DNA of 64,000 nucleotides from Elusimicrobiota bacterium. GTDB lineage: Bacteria > Elusimicrobiota > Elusimicrobia > FEN-1173. A model generated the notes under the pieces. It saw nothing but the letters and a program-made list of their open reading frames with translations. It made no database searches and was not told the origin of the DNA. Positions 3,927 through 45,417 of this stretch are shown here, piece after piece (the first letter of the stretch is position 1; each line of letters starts with the position of its first letter). A program made the translations under genes and the position numbers. The stretch lies in the NCBI GenBank assembly GCA_016721625.1, contig JADKHR010000001.1, positions 1,967,225 through 2,031,224 of the forward strand. Direction: 5' to 3'.

Positions 3927-5354
3927 ATGAAAAGAGAAATTATCGCCAACGTTTTACCGGAAGAAACGCGGATCGCCGTTTTAGAGGAAGGGCATCTGGC
4001 GGAGTTCATGATCGAGCGCCCCGCGCTCGGCATGGCGAAACTGGTGGGCAACATCTACAAGGGGCGGCTGGAAAACGTTCTTCCCGGCATCTCCAGCGCC
4101 TTCGTGAGCACGGGGTTCGAAAAAAACGCCTACCTGTACGTGACGGACGTCGTCAGTTCGTCAAAGGACCGCCACATCGAGAAGATGCTCCGGCGGGGGG
4201 AAGAGCTGATGGTTCAGGTGGCCAAGGAAGCCATCAGCACCAAGGGGATGAAAGTGACCATGGACATTTCCATTCCAGGCCGCTATCTGATCTACATGCC
4301 GAAAAGCGAACACGTGGGCGTCTCCAAAAACATCGAGGACACCGAGGAGCGGGAACGACTGCGGCGCATCATTGACGAGGGGAATTTGCCGGGCGGCATG
4401 ATCGTCCGCACCGAAGCCGAGGGCGCCGACGAGGGCGAGCTGAAGGCCGAAATGAAATATTTGGCCAAACTGTGGGAAACCATTCAAAGGAAATACGAGA
4501 GTTCCCAACCCGGCACCTTGATCCACCGAGAACTGGGCCTGACGTTTCAGGTGGCGCGGGACCTGTTGACCAACGACGCGGCGATTTTTTTGATCGACGA
4601 CAAGGAGGAATACAAAGACGTCAAAAAGTTCGTGGAAACCCTGGCGCCGGAGTTCGCCGACCGCGTCCAGCACTACACCGGGAAAACGCCGATTTTCCAA
4701 GCCTTCGGCGTGGACCGAGAGTTGTCCCACATCCGCCAGCAAAGGATCGATCTCCCCTCGGGCGGTTACATCATCATCCAGGAGGCCGAGTCCCTCTGCG
4801 CCATCGACGTCAACACCGGCAAATTCGTCGGCCACAAATCCCAGGAAGAAACCGTCACGGCCACCAACCTGGAAGCCGCCGAGGAAGTGGCCAAACAGCT
4901 CCGGATCCGAAACATCGGCGGCATCATCGTGATCGATTTCATCGACATGCGGAGGAAACGGAACCAAATCAAAGTGGTGGAGGTCTTGGAGGAAGCCACG
5001 CGGAACGACCGGGCGAAAATTAAAATCCTACCCATCACGCGCCTGGGCTTAGTCGAGATGACCCGGGAACGCCGCCGGGAATCGCTGTTGTCCCTTCTCT
5101 CCGAACCCTGCGCCGAATGTGCCGGTTCGGGCAACGTCCTCTCCCGGGAGTCGATGTACCTAAAACTCCAGAAAGAAATCTTGGAAATGACCCAAGGCCG
5201 CTCGGAAGGCCGTCTCCAAATCACGCTCCCGCCCATCGTGGGCGACTTCGTCCGCGAACGCCAAGACCGCCTGGAAAAAATCATCAAACGCCCGCTCACC
5301 ATCGCCATCGACCCCACCCTCCCCTGGGAAGACTACCGCATCGTGATTGATTGA
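3927..5354 (+). CDS. rng: ribonuclease G (RNase E/G family)
   Basis: ATG at 3927 preceded by GGGAG ribosome-binding site; 475 aa; N-terminus MKREIIANVLPEETRIAVLEEG... typical of RNase E/G catalytic domain; size fits RNase G; the upstream 440 aa of ORF 2610..5354 is an out-of-frame shadow of rodA. Confidence 0.85.
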   Translation: MKREIIANVLPEETRIAVLEEGHLAEFMIERPALGMAKLVGNIYKGRLENVLPGISSAFVSTGFEKNAYLYVTDVVSSSKDRHIEKMLRRGEELMVQVAKEAISTKGMKVTMDISIPGRYLIYMPKSEHVGVSKNIEDTEERERLRRIIDEGNLPGGMIVRTEAEGADEGELKAEMKYLAKLWETIQRKYESSQPGTLIHRELGLTFQVARDLLTNDAAIFLIDDKEEYKDVKKFVETLAPEFADRVQHYTGKTPIFQAFGVDRELSHIRQQRIDLPSGGYIIIQEAESLCAIDVNTGKFVGHKSQEETVTATNLEAAEEVAKQLRIRNIGGIIVIDFIDMRRKRNQIKVVEVLEEATRNDRAKIKILPITRLGLVEMTRERRRESLLSLLSEPCAECAGSGNVLSRESMYLKLQKEILEMTQGRSEGRLQITLPPIVGDFVRERQDRLEKIIKRPLTIAIDPTLPWEDYRIVID

Positions 5355-5382
5355 CCGGGATCATAGGCGATTTTTTATGTCG

Positions 5383-5863
5383 AATAGGGGACGGTGATAA
5401 CTTTATAACTTAAAGAAGTTTTCATCCAACCGTCTTTCTTCTCGAAGAATGGCTTTTGATAACGTCGGTGGAAAAAGGAGAGAATTTGTTGGATTTCCGT
5501 GGCGGGGAATCCCATTTTTTCCCTTCCGACAAATACAACCAAATCCCTTCCACTGCGAGAATCGTCCGGGCTCAATGCTTCGGACGATGACGTCGTATAA
5601 CCCTCCAGGAACACGGAGACGTGGCTGGCGCGGCATTTTGGAAATAATAGAAATTCGTGTCTCTTTAGCCGCTTGGTTCATCCGATGACGCATGCATTTT
5701 GTAGTGGCCCCATGGAGGGGGCCACCTTTTTCCAGGACAAGGTCTTCTGACGGAAAATCGCCCGATAAATCGGGCCACTACAAAAATCGCTTCAGAGCGC
5801 TAAACTGACACAGAAATTCAATGGAGGGGGCCACTAAGTTATTAAATTATCACCGTCCTATTT
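5383..5863. mobile_element. MITE-like non-coding element bounded by ~28-bp imperfect terminal inverted repeats
   Basis: Left end aataggggacggtgataactttataactt (5383-5411) is the near reverse complement of right end aagttattaaattatcaccgtcctattt (5836-5863), sharing a 10-bp identical core ACGGTGATAA; internal 10-bp inverted pair gtagtggccc (5701-5710) / gggccactac (5772-5781) and 14-bp direct repeat atggagggggccac (5712-5725, 5821-5834); no protein-like ORF inside. Confidence 0.35.
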
Positions 5864-6185
5864 CTCTGCAACCGGCCATATGGTAGTATGTACCATGGTG
5901 GTTTGTGCGTTTTAAAACGGCCGGTTATTTTATCGCCCGGGACGTTTGATTTTTTTATTTGCACACCAACTGGGACGTTATCGGCGTGTGGGCTTGGTTA
6001 TGGAAAGTCAGGCGGCGCGGTTTGGCCGGCGTTACCGACAGGAATGGCCAGGTTTCAATTGGCTTCATTCTTAACATTTTTCCTTAAGAGCGAGTCATTG
6101 TGTTGCATGTAAGGAAACCGACAGGACAAAATTGTTTCATTGCTTTTTCTTCCTTTTGGGGTTATGCTCAATGAGGGGGTCATAA

Positions 6186-7910
6186 ATGCATACGTTATCG
6201 AATCGCTTTCGAGGTTCTTTTTGGAGGGGTATCGGGGTGTTGGGCGGGGGTATTCTGCTCGCTTTCCCGGTGCGGGCCGATTTATTTGAAACGATTGATT
6301 TTACCGGAACGGGCGCCGGGTATGACATGACCGCGGCTTCTTTTTCCTTCTTAAGCCTTCATGGCGCGGTTCAAGCGGGCGATATAAACGGAGACCAGTT
6401 AGCCGACGTCGTTATTCTGGCCGACGGCCGTGTCCAGGCGAACGATTTTCAAACCCCAGGGGGATGGATTCCTCCGACCCATTACCTGTACAATCCAATT
6501 AATCTCGCCGTCGCTGGCTCAAGTTCGCCCAACGTTTTGGCTGGGATTGTGGGAGCTCCCAACTCCACCTTTATCCAATATACCGGAGGGGACCTGGCCT
6601 GGTACCAAAACAATGGAAACGGGTATTTCGAACCTTGTTTTGTTAACCTCAACACCGGCAATCCCCCCGAAATTTACAACGGAAAAAATCTTCAAGTGGC
6701 GGATTTGGATGGCGACTCAGACAACGATATCGTTGTTTGGGCCAGTATGGAAACAACACAACCGACTTCGCTCTCGGCGCCGGGCGAGTGGCTTGGTTTG
6801 AAAGCATTCCTTTGACGACCAATAAAATACAGTTCAAACAATTCAATGCTGTTGATCCATGGAACACCCCAGGGCATTTTTCAGTGGGCTTAACTAGTTA
6901 CAGTGTCGATGATACGCAGGCGGGAACCTTGGTTAACATGAACTTGGACGGTAAATTAGACTTAGCCGTTTTGGCTCATGGCGGTGCCATTTTCGGGGAA
7001 TCAGGGCTATACGTTTTTAAAAACAATGGAGCCGGACCGGGTTTGTTCAGCCAAACAGTTGGGAATGTGGCTCCCGTCATAGTGGCCGGCGCCCCTATCG
7101 CGATCGGTTCGGCATTGTTATTTCGTCCGCCGACATCGATGGCGACACCTTTCCGGATCTGGTCATTGGCGAGGATGGCCCAACCGGCGGCAATGACCAG
7201 GAATTGTTTTACTTAAAGAATCCCAGCGGGGACATTTTTAGCGGCTTACCTTTCACCAAGGTCGTGGTCCATAACCAGTTCCCCGTCTTCCGCGCGGTGA
7301 CCGTCTCCGATGTGATTCCAGGCGGGTGCCAAGAGATCATCGCCGGGGGAAATCAGACCGGCTCGCCGATTTCCATTTTTTCCGGCAGTCTTCAGGGTGG
7401 CGCGAATTGCGTTAACTGGACCCAGACCCCGCTGGCCGGAGCGAACACCTTGGGCAATATACTCGACATCCGCGTGGCCGATTTCAATAACGACGGTTTG
7501 TTGGATATCGTTGCTTTTTCGGAGAGCGCTCCGAACCCCCTCCCCACTTTGCCGGCGGGAAAAAGCACGGTGACGACCCTCTGGCTGAACTCCGGATCGC
7601 TTCCCACGAACCCGATCACGGCCTGGAGATCCATCCCCTTGGTCGAAAACGGCGCTCTTCCGGCCATGAATATCACCCGGGGGGATTGGCTGTTAGTGAT
7701 TTTGACGGAGATGGGGATATGGATGTGGTGCGGTCCCACATTGAAACCAACCTCGCCTATTTCGAAAACAACTGGAACACGGAACGCCATGTGAAAGTCA
7801 TGACCACCATCGAGAAGAAGGGGTTCGTTCAGCGAGTGGTCTCCTTTCTGTACACTTTGCCGGACCGATCCGTGGGGCGGATCCTTGGGCAAGACGTGGG
7901 TGCCCCTTGA
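6186..7910 (+). pseudogene. FG-GAP/VCBS repeat beta-propeller protein with signal peptide, interrupted by at least three frame changes
   Basis: Four consecutive ORFs (6186-6815, 6737-7216, 7204-7794, 7686-7910) in frames 0,2,1,0 each carry FG-GAP-type motifs (DINGDQLADVVI, DLDGDSDNDIVV, NMNLDGKLDLAV, ADFNNDGLLDIV, SDFDGDGDMDVV); N-terminal signal peptide MHTLSNRFRGSFWRGIGVLGGGILLAFPVRA. Confidence 0.6.
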
Positions 7911-8601
7911 AAATCCTAAACGGGAAGGGCCGCCCCCGCGGCTTTACGCTCATTGAGATGGTGGTGGCTATTTCGTTGGTTTCCATTCTTGGCCTTTTTA
8001 TTTTCAAGATGATGCGGAATTTTGTCGATGGGTTAGGCGGGGTCCAGAGATCGATCCCTTTGCAAAGGGATCTGCAAATCGCCAAATACGTCATCGAAAA
8101 AGATCTTCTCTCGGCCCGCGCCATTCCATTGGAAACGCCGTCCCCAATTGCGGTTTTGAGGAAACGCCGACAGCGATGTCAACGACTTTGCCTCCTCCCC
8201 CGGGGGGATGGACGTGCGTCCCGTACCCGCCGACGATTTCAAACTCTCAATTTTCTTACCGAATAGGGTATATCAGCGGCCGTCCGGTCTCGGTGTTGAA
8301 TGGACATTACGGGCTGATCGTCTCTTTGGATGACAACAGGCAATTTGCCGCGCAATCGGCGACGTTTTCGTTGGTGGGCCAGAATATCTACCTGTTCGGG
8401 GTGGGGATCCGGACTTATAAATCAAATATCGGTCGGGGAGCGGACTCGGTGCTTCTAGGCGATCCCGTTCCCTGGCCTCCTCTTCTTTCCTCCGCACTGG
8501 CCATCACGCTCGCTTCTCCCCGCAAACATGGGTTTATCTTGTTTCCTCCTTTACGGCTGTTGGAACTTATAATTATCGGGTTGAAGCCGGAGCGTCCCTG
8601 A
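7907..8601 (+). CDS. prepilin-type N-terminal cleavage/methylation domain protein (type IV pilin-like pseudopilin), frame-shifted
   Basis: TTG start overlapping stop of FG-GAP gene; N-terminus MKILNGKGRPRGFTLIEMVVAISLVSIL has the canonical G/FTLIE prepilin motif followed by a hydrophobic helix; reading continues in another frame (8176-8601) with protein-like composition; C-terminal extent uncertain. Confidence 0.55.
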
Positions 8602-9061
8602 CGGATTCCTTTTACCCTCGACGCCGCGCATGACGACATTGTGGTGACGCCCCTCTCGTTGGACCTAACGACGACCAATGGGGTGACTTTCGAGTTCGAT
8701 CGATTTGAGGTGAGCGGCGCCACCAGTCGACGCGTACGGATACGATATCGTTTGGCGCCTCATGGAAATAGCGGGCAGTTGATCCGGGAACGGAGGCTGG
8801 TGCCCGGCAGCCCTTGGTCATCCCAAGGGTCGCTCAACAATATCCGGCGGCTTTGGGTGGGATGGGATTTTGGCCAGCCCAGGCCTGGGATCCTACCCAG
8901 CCCTCTCCCTTTCGGATTTTTCCAGAAAGGCATGAATTTTCCGCTCGTCATCTTTTTGGAATCGGGAGAGGTGGGGCCCCGCTCGGCGGATCGGTCGCGT
9001 CTCCGTCAACCACCCGGAACGCCCTCGAGTTGGTGTTTTCCGTTTTCCGGAGGCGCCTTAA

Positions 9062-9527
9062 ATGCGGTCCCGGGCCACTTCCAAGGGGCGTTCGTTCTCG
9101 CAAAGCGGTTTCACCTTTGGCGGAGATTGTGGTTTCCGTGATCATTCTGGTGCCGGTGATGATCCTTATCCTGTCCGTCTTCACGACGTCCATTCGCTCG
9201 GTGACGGATTCCTGGGACGTCACTCAAGTCCACCGCCGTGGCCCAGCGGTTGATCGACAAAATCCGTTCCATGAGGTGGGATGAAAATTTAAGTTCGGCT
9301 TCCTCCGTTTTGGGCCCGATAGCGGTGAATCGGGTCCTGGGGATTTCGATGACGTGGACGATTGGAATAACTTCAGCTTGCCGGACTCTTTAGCCTCCTC
9401 CGTGCGTTACGGAAGGCACGTGGATGGACTACGTGACCTCAACGCTTCCGGACAAGTGGTGTCATCTACCGCCCCAACGAATTGTAAAAGGGTGACTGTC
9501 CGGGTCACCAATGTGGTAGGAAAGTGA
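9062..9527 (+). pseudogene. second pilin-like pseudopilin, multiply frame-shifted
   Basis: ATG 9062 gives MRSRATSKGRSFSQSGFTF; adjacent frame continues AEIVVSVIILVPVMILILSVF (prepilin-like G-FT-x-x-E plus hydrophobic helix); downstream frames read ...GDFDDVDDWNNFSLPDSLASSVRYG...VTVRVTNVVGK to stop near 9525-9527. Confidence 0.4.
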
Positions 9528-10442
9528 CAGTCCTTTCCGTTCTCATCGTGAATACTTAGGATTGGCCATGAAAAAATCGATCCCTCAAGCATCAAAAAAA
9601 GCCGGGGCGGCGATCTTAATGATCGTGTTCTTGCTTTTAATCCTGTTGCCCTAACCATGATCCTCGTCAAATGGAGCGCCCTTCACCTGCGAGGAAGCAA
9701 CCGGGGCCGTATTCACATGGACGAATATTATTCCGGAATCACCGCTACCAACGCGGCACTCCTTAGTGCCAATAGCTGGACCTGGGATAATACACTACCC
9801 CAAACCAACAGCCAAGTTTTTTTGGGTAGCGGAACGGTGATTTCTGTGCAAATAACCCATGTCGGGACCCCCTAATCGGTACCCATTATCCGGGTTAACC
9901 CGAAAGGTGCAGTTGGTTCGCGGGAGTTGAAATTTGAGATGCGGTTCCTGTCGCGTCCCACCCATCGGGAACCAGTGCAATCTGCGTCGCCTATGGCGGT
10001 CGTTTTACTGTAAAATTGTCGACATGCGTAACAGATCGCTGTCGTTTCGAAAAAGGCGGGCCTTCCTGTCCGGCTCCCTTGAGTTTTCCGAACCTTTTAA
10101 ATCCAGAACCTATGGGCCCCTCTAAGAGGGTTCGTCCGTCTGATTCGAAGGCGGCGGGCCCCGCCGCTGATCGAATCCATTTTGTCGAGGCGGGGGGAGT
10201 GGCCGGCGTGCGGAAGACCTGCGAGGTTCGGCTGGACGACCTGCCTCCGGCGGCCCGGCGCGGGGTGCGGCACGCTTTTGCCTCATCCAGGGGGCGGGGC
10301 CTGGGCCGGGACCTGAAAACATGCCGTCTCTCTCCACCGCGGAGGCGAGGGATCCGGGACGTCCTTTTGGACGAAGCCTCGGTGCCTCTGGCCGCCCGGC
10401 CCTTGGTGAGATACCTTTCCCAACGCGCTTCCCCGGCTCGGC

Positions 10443-20117: not shown

Positions 20118-21576
20118 ATGCTTTTCAATTCTTGGGAATTCCTTTTTTTCTTTCCTACGGTGACCGCTTTGTATTTCATCCTGCCCCATCGCTCTCGCTG
20201 GTTCCTGCTTTTGTTGGCGAGTTGTTATTTTTATATGTCTTTTATCCCGATATACATATTGATCCTTGGAGTGACGATCCTGGTGGACTATTACGCCGGC
20301 CAATTTATTGAAATGTCGTCGGGCCGAAAAAAGAAATATTTTCTTGCCGGCAGTATTGTCGCCAATGTGGGTTTCCTGGCTTTTTTCAAGTACTTCATTT
20401 TTCTTAATGACAATATGGCGTTGATAGCAAAGGCGATCCATTGGAATTACCCTATCCCTTCTTTAAATATCATTCTTCCCATCGGGTTATCATTCCATAC
20501 TTTTCAAGCCATGAGTTACACGATTGAAATCTATCGGGGCCGTCAAAAGGCGGAGAAGCACTTCGGCCTATTTGCTTTGTACGTGATGTTTTATCCGCAG
20601 TTGGTGGCCGGACCCATCGAACGTCCTCAAAATTTAATACATCAGTTTTCCGAGGAGCATGAATTTGAATACGGGAGAGTGTCCGACGGATTAAAATTAA
20701 TGGCGTGGGGTTTTTAAAAGGTCGTTGTGGCGGACAGGTTGGCGCTCCTCGTCAATCAAGTCTATGACAATCCCACGCGGTACACGGGTTTACCGTTGAT
20801 CATCGCCACCGTCTTTTTTTCCTTCCAAATCTATTGTGATTTTTCCGGATACTCCGATATCGCCATTGGATCGGCTCAAATCATGGGATTCAAATTAATG
20901 AAAAACTTTAACAGGCCGTATTTTTCGAAATCAATTGCCGAATTTTGGAAAAGATGGCATATTTCTTTGTCTTCGTGGTTCAGAGACTATTTTTATATTC
21001 CACTTGGGGGAAGCAGGGTTTCAAAAGGGAGATGGCAGTTTAATCTGCTCCTCACATTCTTGATAAGCGGGCTGTGGCATGGAGCCCATTGGACTTACGT
21101 TGCCTGGGGAGGCCTGAACGGGCTTTATTTCATTTTTTCAATTTGGACGGAAGGGATCCGGAAAAGAATCACTGTATTTGCGAACCTCCATAAGTTTCCC
21201 ATGGTTCAACAATGCGGGCAAATCGTTATAACTTATTCACTTATTTGTTTTTCTTGGATTTTTTTTCGAGCCAAAAATCTAAAAGAATCTTTCTATATTA
21301 TAAGTCATCTTTTTAAAGGGTCGAATCTATTTTTAAATTCAAAGCCGTCATCTCCGGCATCGGTGGGTTAGGATTCGGAAAGAAGGATTATTTAGCTGCC
21401 ATCGTTTCCATGGTCTTTTTAGAAACCGTGGAATACGTTCAACGAAAGGAAAGCCTTAGGCCATGGATTTCAAAACAACCCGCCTATGTGAGATGGGGAT
21501 TATATTATTTACTGGTTTTTTGGATTTGTTCATTCGGGGTTTTTAGGAAATCGCAATTTATCTATTTTCAATTCTA
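20118..21576 (+). CDS. MBOAT-family membrane O-acyltransferase (AlgI/DltB-like), interrupted by an in-frame TAA and a frame change
   Basis: MBOAT signatures SFHTFQAMSYTIEIYRG, FWKRWHISLSSWFRDYFYIPLGGSR, WHGAHW; same-frame ORFs 20118-20717 and 20727-21371 separated by TAA at 20715-20717 (…LKLMAWGF*KVVVADRLA…); C-terminus continues in another frame to ~21576. Confidence 0.75.
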
Positions 21577-28073: not shown

Positions 28074-29077
28074 TTGGGTCGTCAAAAATTTCAATTTCCG
28101 CTCCTCATCGCAGAGGTTGCCAATTCACACGGGGGTTCTCGTCCGTATCTTTTCCAACTGACCAAGAGGCTGCTGGCTACGAGCGTCCCTGCCGTTAAAT
28201 TTCAATGCATCGTGGCGGATGATTTTTTGACCCCCGCTCACCCCCAATACGAGCTATTCAAGTCCTTTGAATTTCCGCCGACCGTATTTTCCACGCTGGT
28301 GCGGCTCATCCATGGGGCAAGGAAAAAGGCGTATTTTGACGTTTTCGGCGACATCTCGTTGGCGGCGGCGGATCGGGTCGGCGCCGACGGTTTTAAAATC
28401 TATGCCAGCGACATCGGCAATAATCCTTTCATTGAAAAGGTCCTCTCGATCGGAAAGCCGGTCTTGATCTCAGTGGGGGAGCGACGCTGAGCGAAATCGA
28501 CGAGATTGTTAAAATATGTTCGGGAAAACAGTTCTGTCTCTTGGTGGGGTTTCAAGCGTTCCCTACTCCGATCGAGGAATCCAACGTGGGGAAAATTAAA
28601 TTCCTAAGAGAACGATACGGTTGTTCCGTCGGATACATGGATCATTCTCCGGCCATTGACCCTTTCTCGGAATTTGTCCCTTGTTTGGCGGTTGGGCAAG
28701 GGGCCTGTTGCATCGAAAAACACGCGTATCTTAAAGCCAGGAAGACCTTGTATGATTGGCAATCGGCGTTCGACCCCTCCCAGTTTGAAACGCTCGCTCA
28801 CCGCCTTAAGAAGGCTCAGTCCGCGTTGGGGACAACGTTCTTTCCCCTTTCTTCTTCTGAACAGGCTTACTCCCGCTCAAAGCGGAAAATCATTGTCGCG
28901 GCCGATCCGATCGACCAAGGAGTTCGGATCCTCCCCAAGAACATCATGGGCCGATGCGCCCATCTTTCTTCGAGGACCTCGTTTTTCACACTCAACCAGT
29001 CCGGCCACGTGGTCGGTCGAGTGGCTCGAAAAAATATCCAACGGTTCGAGGTGATCTCGCCGGACATTTTAAGATGA
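28074..29077 (+). CDS. NeuB-family nonulosonate/ulosonate synthase paralog 1 (one frame change)
   Basis: TTG 28074 after AGGGAGA RBS; N-terminal ...PLLIAEVANSHGGS...AVKFQ...; continues after a frame change at ~28470 (ISVG / GGATLSEIDEIVKICSGKQFCLLVGFQAFPTP...MDHS...IEKH...). Confidence 0.7.
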
Positions 29078-44321: not shown

Positions 44322-45417
44322 ACGAACCCACAGCGATCCGCGATCGGAACGTTGGAGACGGGAACCCGGTCTACATCGTGGCGGAGATGTCGGCGAATCA
44401 CGGGGGGGACTATTCCAGGGCTGTGAGAATACTGCAGGAGGCCAAGACCGCCGGGGCTGACGCGGTCAAACTTCAGACCTACACGGCCGATACCCTCACG
44501 ATAAAATCCGAGCAGGACTGTTTTCGAATCGGCCATGGTTCTTTGTGGGAAGGAAAGCGGCTTTACGACCTCTATCAGGAGGCGTACACCCCTTGGGAGT
44601 GGCATCCGAAGCTGAAGGAAGTGGCCCGACGCTTGGGTTTGGATCTTTTCTCCTCGCCCTTTGACGCCACCGCCGTGGAATTTTTGGAAACAATGGATGT
44701 TCCTTGTTATAAGATTTCGTCATTCGAGATCATCGATATCCCGTTGATCCGGCGCGTGGCGCGAACCGGAAAGCCCATGATCCTGTCAACGGGAATGGCC
44801 ACCCGGGAGGAAATTGACGAAGCGGTGCGCGAAGCCCGCACCCACGGAGCCCGTGGGATCGTTCTTCTTAGTGTCAGCGCCTATCCGGCGCCGGCAGAGG
44901 AAATGAATCTTCGCGCCATTCCGCGCCTCTCCCATGATTTCGGCTTTCCGGTGGGATTATCGGACCATACGCTTGGATCGGCCGCCCCCGTGGCCGCCGT
45001 TGCGTTGGGGGCCTGTCTCATGAAAAACACTTTACGCTTTCCCGTTCGTTTGCCGGTCCGGATAGTTCGTTTTCAATGGAACCCACGGAGTTCAAGGCCA
45101 TGGTGGAAGCTGTTCGTGGAACGGAGAAAGCTCTCGGAAAATCTGATTACGTTTTGGGGGAGAAAGAGAAGGCGAGTCGCGCTCTCCGGCGCTCTCTGTT
45201 TGTGGTCCAAGAGATGGCGTCGGGCGACGTTTTCACCGAGACCAACGTCCGTTCCATTCGGCCGGCGAACGGGTTGCCTCCCCGTCATTACGCGGAGGTG
45301 TTGGGCCGCCGCTCGACGCGTGGGATACAACGCGGGACGCCGTTGACGTGGGACCTTGTGGAAAAAATAGGGGATGGAATGATCAAAGATACGGGGAAAT
45401 CCAGGAGCGAAAAATGA
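44318..45417 (+). CDS. pseI: pseudaminic acid synthase-like NeuB-family enzyme (PseI-like), one frame change
   Basis: ...VYIVAEMSANHGGDYSRAVRILQEAKTAGADAVKLQTY...GKPMILSTGMAT...GLSDHTLG...; frame change at ~45032 (ctcatgaaaaacac); then ...EKHFTLSRSFAGPDSSFSMEPTEFKAMVEAVRGTEKALG... with SAF-like C-terminus. Confidence 0.75.

Follow-up and report, generated by a model that had tools for sequence, protein, structure and literature searches.

Is the run of broken reading frames near the start of a 64-kb window from an Elusimicrobiota bacterium the remnant of a pilus-like gene module, or is it an intact set of genes concealed by a faulty assembly, and what would such a module do? (The window is the whole stretch of DNA analysed here; the organism is identified by the source names of two orthologous proteins, P0012 and P0135.) A sequence-only reading had recognized at 6186-9527 an FG-GAP propeller gene followed by genes with prepilin-type N-termini, had suggested a tip adhesin analogous in role to PilY1, and had raised the possibility that the module is decaying or phase-variable. 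We find that the unit is a four-gene operon on the + strand, extending from 6186 to 9875, whose genes (here termed g1 to g4) are chopped into overlapping open reading frames (ORFs) in all three frames. Our preferred interpretation, to which we assign a probability of roughly 60%, is that this operon is intact and encodes the minor-pilin module that tips and primes a type IV filament and carries a docked propeller, serving adhesion to glycans or surfaces. Its features are:

6186..7910, + strand: g1, secreted FG-GAP (integrin-alpha-type) seven-bladed beta-propeller, ~574 aa after frame correction
7907..9061, + strand: g2, large modular pseudopilin with a class III signal peptide, 385 aa
9062..9559, + strand: g3, PilV/GspI-type minor pseudopilin, ~165 aa, true stop TAG at 9557-9559
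9568..9875, + strand: g4, small pilin-like protein without Glu5, ~102 aa
9986..10010, + strand: terminator-like hairpin followed by a T tract, ~110 nt past the g4 stop, found by consensus scan

Extent and gene content

The module begins where it had been placed, at 6186, but it does not end at 9527: the stop codon at 9525-9527 is an artefact of a frameshift at ~9525, so that g3 continues to 9559 and a fourth gene, at 9568-9875, also belongs to the unit. The FG-GAP gene and the two prepilin genes had been correctly identified, whereas the fourth gene and a predicted carbohydrate-binding module (CBM) within the large pilin had been overlooked. Searches with profile models matched both of the expected families. 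All ORF pieces of the signal-peptide-bearing protein at 6186-7910 match FG-GAP repeats (PF13517, 3e-10; PF01839, 6.5e-6), and the prepilin N-terminus GFTLIEMVV at 7940 matches PF07963 (1.5e-7) and TIGR02532 (3.2e-7); a second prepilin N-terminus, as had been noted, spans a frame change, with an additional T in the run at 9116-9118 separating its SGFT and LAEIVV portions. The stop/start overlap reported between the FG-GAP gene and the first prepilin gene is also present, with the TTG start of g2 at 7907 overlapping the g1 stop at 7908-7910, and all four genes are translationally coupled through overlapping or abutting ends. The hairpin downstream of g4 is likely the end of the operon; the number of such hairpin sites in the region equals that expected from shuffled sequences, which makes this weak evidence.

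Origin of the frame changes

Frame changes were located by frameshift-aware alignment of the proteins of a related contig, L001, to the window, followed by inspection. Within 3.7 kb there are at least 13 one-base frameshifts (ten of the 13 being deletions) together with one compensated pair, distributed as follows:

g1, three 1-nt deletions: ~6747 (G run), 7091 (C5 read as C4) and 7678 (G7 read as G6)
g2, five frameshifts: near 8114, 8518, 8610, 8971 and 9042
g3, four frameshifts: 9116-9118 (extra T), ~9225, ~9310 and ~9525
g3, compensated indel pair: near 9432-9450, where the window reads VDGLRDL and P0135, P0136 and P0137 read VDVDYVTL
g4, one frameshift: ~9650 (C run)

Every gene of the module is thus affected, with three frameshifts in g1, five in g2, four in g3 and one in g4, in agreement with the sequence-only reading; the possibility that it raised on their account, decay or phase variation, is not supported. 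Runs of at least three identical bases account for 23.8% of the region and for ten of the 13 frameshifts (binomial P = 8e-5), and the four corrected reading frames contain no in-frame stops. Corrected g2 is 97% identical both to the intact P0012 (MBL0059866.1, from an Elusimicrobia metagenome-assembled genome, or MAG, in NCBI) and to P0026 (Logan), differing from the latter by 12 substitutions and from the former by two outside a scrambled stretch of P0012's own, and its junction residues are exactly those of the intact orthologues. Corrected g3 agrees with P0135 (96% identical, and encoded on the same NCBI contig as P0012), P0136 (ENA) and P0137 (Logan) at all four junctions. In g2 and g3 taken together, intact orthologues confirm the corrected reading at eight junctions.

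The orthologue P0012 itself contains a compensated double frameshift at residues 321-341 (WILASPGLGPASPLPFGFSK, as opposed to WDFGQPRPGILPSPLPFGFFQK in the window and in P0026), and the deposited protein is locally wrong. That P0012 has a compensated frameshift of its own, different from that of the window, points to error-prone assemblies of this population.

Other genes of the window are broken as well. The M4 (thermolysin-type) peptidase at 12386-13957 lies in at least three ORF pieces (Peptidase_M4; M4_C 1-65; M4_C 70-164), and a C3-to-C2 change near 12908 disrupts its HELTH zinc motif. One NeuB-like gene, near 28470, shows G5 in place of the required G6; another is broken near 45005, and near 12080 a single-base frameshift affects a GbsR-like regulator. 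The MBOAT/AlgI-like gene at 20112-21371 is interrupted at 20715-20717 by an in-frame TAA within a G4T5A4 tract (MAWGF-stop-KVVVAD), which probably reflects several adjacent homopolymer miscalls rather than a true nonsense mutation. Because these neighbours, though unrelated to the cassette, are also broken at homopolymers, assembly errors appear to be spread throughout the window and not confined to the cassette.

Homopolymer-length miscalls are typical of long-read or flow-based assemblies. Given 13 independent frameshifts, the lack of any nonsense mutation, and proteins that are otherwise 96-99% identical to intact orthologues, we infer that the frame changes are almost certainly errors of this kind and that the cassette is intact, a strong inference from the sequence comparison. 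It is very improbable that they are real, whether as marks of a recently inactivated pseudogene cluster or as products of slipped-strand phase variation. Natural indels also favour homopolymers, and one of the sites (7678) is a G6 run; most of the runs, however, measure 2-5 nt, which is below the length for phase variation. The in-frame stop in the MBOAT gene would fit true decay of genes in this window, but at least 13 frameshifts without a nonsense codon, at 96-99% identity, would be extraordinary under neutral decay, and such decay accounts neither for the similar damage to unrelated genes nor for the different compensated frameshift in a near-identical gene of an NCBI MAG. Apparent pseudogenes in this window's assembly, with its dense homopolymer indels, should therefore not be taken at face value.

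Conservation of the cassette

Eleven independent metagenome or MAG contigs carry all four genes intact and in this order (cassette contigs L001, L002/L003, L004, L036/L037, L038, L039/L040, L041 and L042/L043). Cassette-bearing MAGs include GCA_041917295.1, GCA_018057525.1, GCA_018060765.1 and the source MAG of MBL0059866.1. In these related cassettes the FG-GAP product measures 555-606 aa, the pilin-like product 345-410 aa, the third product 134-180 aa and the fourth 89-113 aa, and stops and starts again overlap or abut. Two distant relatives of g2, recovered on short contigs by profile search (E = 4.5e-26 and 1.3e-11), also have an FG-GAP gene immediately upstream. The flanks of the cassette differ among contigs, with ileS-lspA-lgt-rluD upstream in one lineage. 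This strict co-conservation in changing contexts is our main argument that the four products work together; combined with the presence of a propeller and prepilin-type proteins and with their translational coupling, it bears out the initial view of a pilus- or pseudopilus-type module. It is a known kind of system in a rare, well-conserved and uncharacterised form.

Several of the contexts have features of their own. In L036, exbB-exbD-tonB (6398-8264) lies directly upstream of the cassette, and in L002 a PilZ-domain gene (13108-13653) lies directly downstream; these are possible energising or regulatory links, and they are not kept in other contexts. In L004, L039, L040 and L041, a convergent cluster on the opposite strand is always found downstream of the cassette, encoding a HAMP-domain protein, two proteins of ~535 aa, a small CHU_C protein (with a C-terminal domain of the type IX secretion system, or T9SS, type) and others. 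Contig L038 contains two complete tandem cassettes (4076-7899 and 8298-11988), whose g2 paralogues are 407 and 370 aa long, which suggests diversification of the tip module within one genome.

The propeller protein

The product of g1 is an FG-GAP, integrin-alpha-type propeller. Its N-terminus, MHTLSNRFRGSFWRGIGVLGGGILLAFPVRA followed by DLF, is a Sec signal peptide by inspection, and seven FG-GAP repeats can be read from its sequence, six with clear D/N-x-D/N-x-D calcium-binding-like loops and one degenerate; the protein is predicted, and probably able, to bind Ca2+. Frame-corrected g1 (574 aa) has six full-length homologues, the only ones among 5.8 billion clusters, all of which are intact (541-588 aa) and align with it end to end, without gaps at the reconstructed frame junctions. 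The closest of these, P0001, is 74% identical to g1 and matches PF13517 at 6.5e-28 and PF01839 at 7.7e-16. The most conserved motif of the family, ETNLxxFENxWNTER, follows the last blade, and past the propeller the C-terminus comprises a conserved beta extension (FENxWNTER...KNGxxQ+V) and then a low-confidence, semi-conserved strand or tail.

The AlphaFold2 (AF2) model of g1 has a predicted TM-score (pTM) of 0.76, and its best Foldseek matches among Protein Data Bank (PDB) entries are CRTAC1 and integrin-alpha propellers and headpieces (E = 1e-9 to 1e-7); the AF2 monomer models of this study were built on shallow alignments (6 and 14 sequences) and have a moderate predicted local distance difference test score (pLDDT) of 70-72. 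No PilY1 chain is among the top 50 PDB matches, and neither the window pieces nor the six intact homologues match PF05567 (IPR008707, the PilC/PilY1 domain) at E <= 1. Because g1 lacks the PilC/PilY1 domain and matches the integrin-alpha/CRTAC1 fold, the cassette is to be regarded as analogous to the PilY1 family and not as a member of it, and by that analogy the earlier proposal of a PilY1-like tip adhesin is plausible. A search for the pattern TNLxxxENxWNTER returned 0 matches in a metagenome contig collection, although the window and all fetched cassettes fit the pattern, and among the matches listed in a genome contig scan with the g1 alignment, which relied on generic FG-GAP patterns, there were distant proteins only (21-38% identity), the genome of the window not being among them.

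The pilin-like proteins

By their class III signal peptides, g2 and g3 belong to the type IV pilin/pseudopilin superfamily. In g2 this peptide reads RG followed by FTLIEMVV, with Glu5, and scores 31.1 bits with PF07963 (cut-off 21.2); the prepilin motif (PF07963/TIGR02532) is matched in 11 of 14 family members. The family is small, with 41 clusters at E <= 1e-10. The N-terminus of g2 is nearest to the GspJ and PpdC models, and in equivalog tests (TIGR01707/TIGR01711/GspK) g2 scored 17-20 bits with the gspJ model, below its cut-off of 64.85.

In its AF2 model, g2 has an alpha1 helix of ~54 residues (15-68) and then beta domains, in the order of a CBM_4_9-like jelly roll (approximately residues 95-255) and a C-terminal beta domain. 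The middle module matches CBM4-2 (Foldseek TMt 0.73) and, weakly, CBM16/22 chains (E = 0.015). When the profile of the g2 family was run against 1.84 billion representatives, large multidomain proteins were matched at the middle module with E values of 1e-7 to 1e-4, and the matched stretches of these proteins are Pfam CBM_4_9 (PF02018) domains. PF02018 has no direct match in the 14 g2 family members, and no Pfam model finds the module directly. The fold and this remote homology point to a divergent CBM_4_9-type jelly roll, for which sugar binding is predicted.

In g3, the N-terminus reads SG followed by FTLAEIVV, and both the Gly at position -1 and Glu5 are invariant in eight orthologues. PF07963 is over its cut-off in the L042 orthologue (26.9 bits) and under it in the window's lineage. 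The best family of g3 is PilV (TIGR02523), the match spanning the N-terminal 55-60 residues only: the L042 orthologue reaches 1.1e-13 and 51.9 bits (cut-off 52.2), other orthologues 8e-5 to 9e-4, and those nearer the window 20-23 bits. XpsI and GspI are the next best families; the score of g3 with the gspI equivalog model is 19.9 bits, under the cut-off of 44.35. NCBI labels a g3 orthologue as "type II secretion system protein".

In every full cassette the fourth position is taken by g4, which encodes an N-terminus of AG followed by AAILMIVFLLLILLPLTMILV, i.e., a Gly and then a hydrophobic helix without Glu5, and a conserved C-terminal beta-strand (GSGTVxxVQIxxxGTP). NCBIfam and GspK models do not match g4, prepilin motif models are not significant, and a weak PilX_N match in one of nine g4 members is the sole family signal. 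GspK is without Glu5, as is the top subunit of the GspI-J-K or PilV-W-X cap. Because two subunits with Glu5 (g2 and g3) and one without reproduce the pattern of such a cap, g4 is a candidate GspK/PilX-type subunit, in keeping with its position, size and hydrophobic N-terminus.

Comparison with known systems

In the PilC/PilY1 system, a non-pilin propeller is held on a minor-pilin cap through strand augmentation, its C-terminal plug of 12 residues pairing with a beta-strand of PilK, and two carriers for tip presentation have been named, a pilin module and an IPR008707 domain with its plug (bioRxiv 10.64898/2026.09.18.752573). The cassette resembles the PilC/PilY1-PilHIJK (FimU-PilV-PilW-PilX) assembly in that a Sec-exported, non-pilin propeller of the Ca-binding type shares an operon with core minor pilins: a PilV-like one, a large one in the PilW/J position, and one without Glu5 in the K/PilX position. 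Both systems have lectin-like ligand-binding modules, that of the cassette being a predicted one, and the tail of g1 after the propeller could act as does the plug of PilC. However, the propeller of the cassette is of the FG-GAP/integrin-alpha type and not IPR008707/PF05567, and g1 is without a large N-terminal adhesin domain, the lectin module of the cassette being on a pilin. There are also three pilins rather than four (no FimU/PilH-type), the propeller gene comes first, and the K-like subunit is only ~100 aa long.

The tip of the type II secretion system (T2SS), GspI-GspJ-GspK with GspH, offers a similar likeness: it too is built on a pseudopilin trio, two with Glu5 and one without, and the helices of the cassette come near to those of GspJ/PpdC and GspI/XpsI. 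But the scores of the cassette fall far short of the family thresholds; g2, twice as large as GspJ, contains a CBM-like module, g4 is one third the size of GspK and has no GspK alpha-domain, and the cassette has no gspG, gspH or neighbouring gsp genes. To our knowledge, an FG-GAP partner is part of no described T2SS.

Modular pilins with lectin or carbohydrate-binding grafts are known (PMC8179133), such as PilB with a vWA module and PilC with a lectin module in Streptococcus sanguinis (PMC8179133, PMC9934059). Like these, g2 has a predicted ligand-binding module grafted on a pilin module and a predicted location at the tip. Unlike in these, the graft is probably a divergent CBM_4_9, missed by domain signatures, it lies between alpha1 and the C-terminal beta domain instead of being appended past a complete pilin, and the cassette belongs to a diderm host and includes a non-pilin propeller. 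The Verru_Chthon cassette (TIGR02596-TIGR02599; Verrucomicrobia, Chthoniobacter) is likewise a small, repeated, stand-alone prepilin-type cassette away from assembly genes, but it encodes four pilin-like proteins and no FG-GAP propeller; its models reached at best E = 0.03-0.07 with our proteins (12-14 bits, against cut-offs of 51-256), in the N-terminal part only. By their defining features, the present cassette belongs neither to the PilY1 family nor to the GspI/J/K equivalogs nor to the Verru_Chthon cassette, and our literature search found no paper tying FG-GAP proteins to minor pilins or prepilins.

Proposed role and alternatives

In the filament-tip role that we favour, a prepilin peptidase would cleave the pilin-like proteins after the conserved Gly, and the alpha1 helices of g2, g3 and g4 would come together as a heterotrimeric cap, serving to prime and tip a type IV filament (either a type IVa pilus, T4aP, or a T2SS-like one). 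Within this cap, g2 would take the GspJ/PilW-like position with its grafted CBM, g3 that of a PilV/GspI-type subunit and g4 a GspK/PilX-like one; the ATPase, platform, secretin and major pilin of the filament would be encoded elsewhere in the genome. Exported by Sec and made in fixed stoichiometry with the pilins by way of the overlapping stop and start, g1 would dock on the cap as PilC/PilY1 does on PilHIJK, possibly by its C-terminal beta extension or tail augmenting the conserved terminal strand of g4. The tip would then display two ligand-binding surfaces, the propeller and the lectin-like CBM, for adhesion to glycans or surfaces.

A number of points count against this role. The artefact status of the frame changes is strongly supported but stops short of proof for this strain. 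Each cassette contains three pilin-like genes only, and a GspH/FimU-type subunit is missing; no family matches g4, the scores of g2 and g3 are below the GspJ, GspI and PilV equivalog cut-offs, and g1 is without the PilC/PilY1 domain. The monomer models are of moderate quality, and carbohydrate binding by g2 is predicted from fold and remote homology. Finally, neither the 64-kb window nor the related contigs encode an assembly ATPase, a platform, a secretin, a prepilin peptidase or a major pilin, and the window contains no type IV pilus (T4P) or T2SS assembly gene and no further prepilin motif outside the cassette.

Two other readings use the same parts differently. We consider it unlikely that g2-g4 make up a GspJ-I-K-like tip on a secretion pseudopilus, with g1 as its dedicated cargo and not as a tip-bound adhesin. 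The N-terminus of g2 is closest to GspJ/PpdC, and g3 matches XpsI and GspI and has an orthologue that NCBI names after the T2SS, but the matches to T2SS models are far under cut-off and confined to the alpha1 helix, and the best family of g3 is PilV, a T4aP protein. Three pilins would fit the I-J-K trio, and the ordinary Sec signal peptide of g1 is of the kind found on T2SS substrates; yet it would be unusual for a cargo to be tied so strictly, 1:1 and in one operon, to tip pilins, gspCDEFGLM are not found beside any copy of the cassette, and a CBM on a J-type subunit fits an exposed tip better than a periplasmic piston.

We also give little credence to the view that there is no filament and that the pilin-like N-termini only anchor a periplasmic or surface glycan-binding complex, consisting of the propeller and the CBM, in the inner membrane or at the cell surface, as has been proposed for many N_methyl proteins of some Elusimicrobia genomes and some genomes of the Planctomycetes-Verrucomicrobia-Chlamydiae (PVC) group. 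Such an anchor would suit the tiny size of g4 and its lack of a family, as well as the lack of a GspH/FimU-type adaptor or major pilin in the cassette, but not the retention of Gly(-1) and Glu5 in g2 and g3 alongside the absence of Glu5 from g4, which is the pattern of a stacked I-J-K-type cap. It would also suit the lack of assembly genes nearby in any context; minor-pilin operons, however, are normally unlinked to the machinery genes, as is the case for fimU-pilVWXY1E. Published work on Elusimicrobia describes PilD, pilins of the PulG-like and type IV kinds, and Tad systems (PMC8809381; PMC6668835).

Other features of the window

The remainder of the window contains cell-wall genes and RNase G upstream of the cassette and a PLD-like gene and the M4 peptidase downstream, as well as PBP1A and an H+-pyrophosphatase. 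A large polysaccharide and nonulosonic-acid biosynthesis cluster occupies ~15000-52000, with genes for glycosyltransferases, a Wzx-type flippase, NeuB-like and PseB-like proteins, aminotransferases, radical SAM/B12 proteins, and asparagine-synthase-like and FemAB-like proteins. The GC content is low at ~16-28 kb (42-50%, as against ~60% in the flanks), and judging from this composition a portion of the cluster may have arrived by horizontal transfer. We considered whether 10-58 kb is an island between the cassette and an HI0933-like gene, following the order in L001, and rejected this, since identity between the two HI0933-like proteins is only 29%.

Between RNase G and the cassette lies an element of ~470 bp (5389-5858) with 24-nt inverted repeats (92% complementary) at its ends; its interior contains GC-rich hairpins, two copies of the 14-nt direct repeat ATGGAGGGGGCCAC and small ORFs without a Pfam match. 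It resembles a miniature inverted-repeat transposable element (MITE) or some other small non-autonomous element. We rejected the idea that the minus-strand ORF at 5403-5693 is a RAYT/IS200 remnant, since it has no Pfam support and lies in the region bounded by the 24-nt inverted repeats.

Implications

A further, tentative suggestion, to which we give somewhat less than even odds, concerns how the module relates to PilC/PilY1. An FG-GAP propeller may have replaced PilC/PilY1 as the non-pilin tip carrier, docking through augmentation by a C-terminal strand on a minimal three-pilin cap whose K-type subunit has shrunk to ~85 mature residues, the lectin function having shifted to the J-type pilin. 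This would be a third, independently evolved solution to tip presentation, so far seen in Elusimicrobiota-like lineages only. If true, the logic of a propeller on a minor-pilin cap would have arisen anew in a little-studied phylum, from an unrelated propeller fold, and a diderm would combine both of the known strategies for functionalising filament tips, a modular lectin pilin and a non-pilin partner. The cassette would then offer a compact, four-gene test system for the loading of non-pilin proteins on filament tips, and would suggest glycan adhesion as a trait of these uncultured bacteria.

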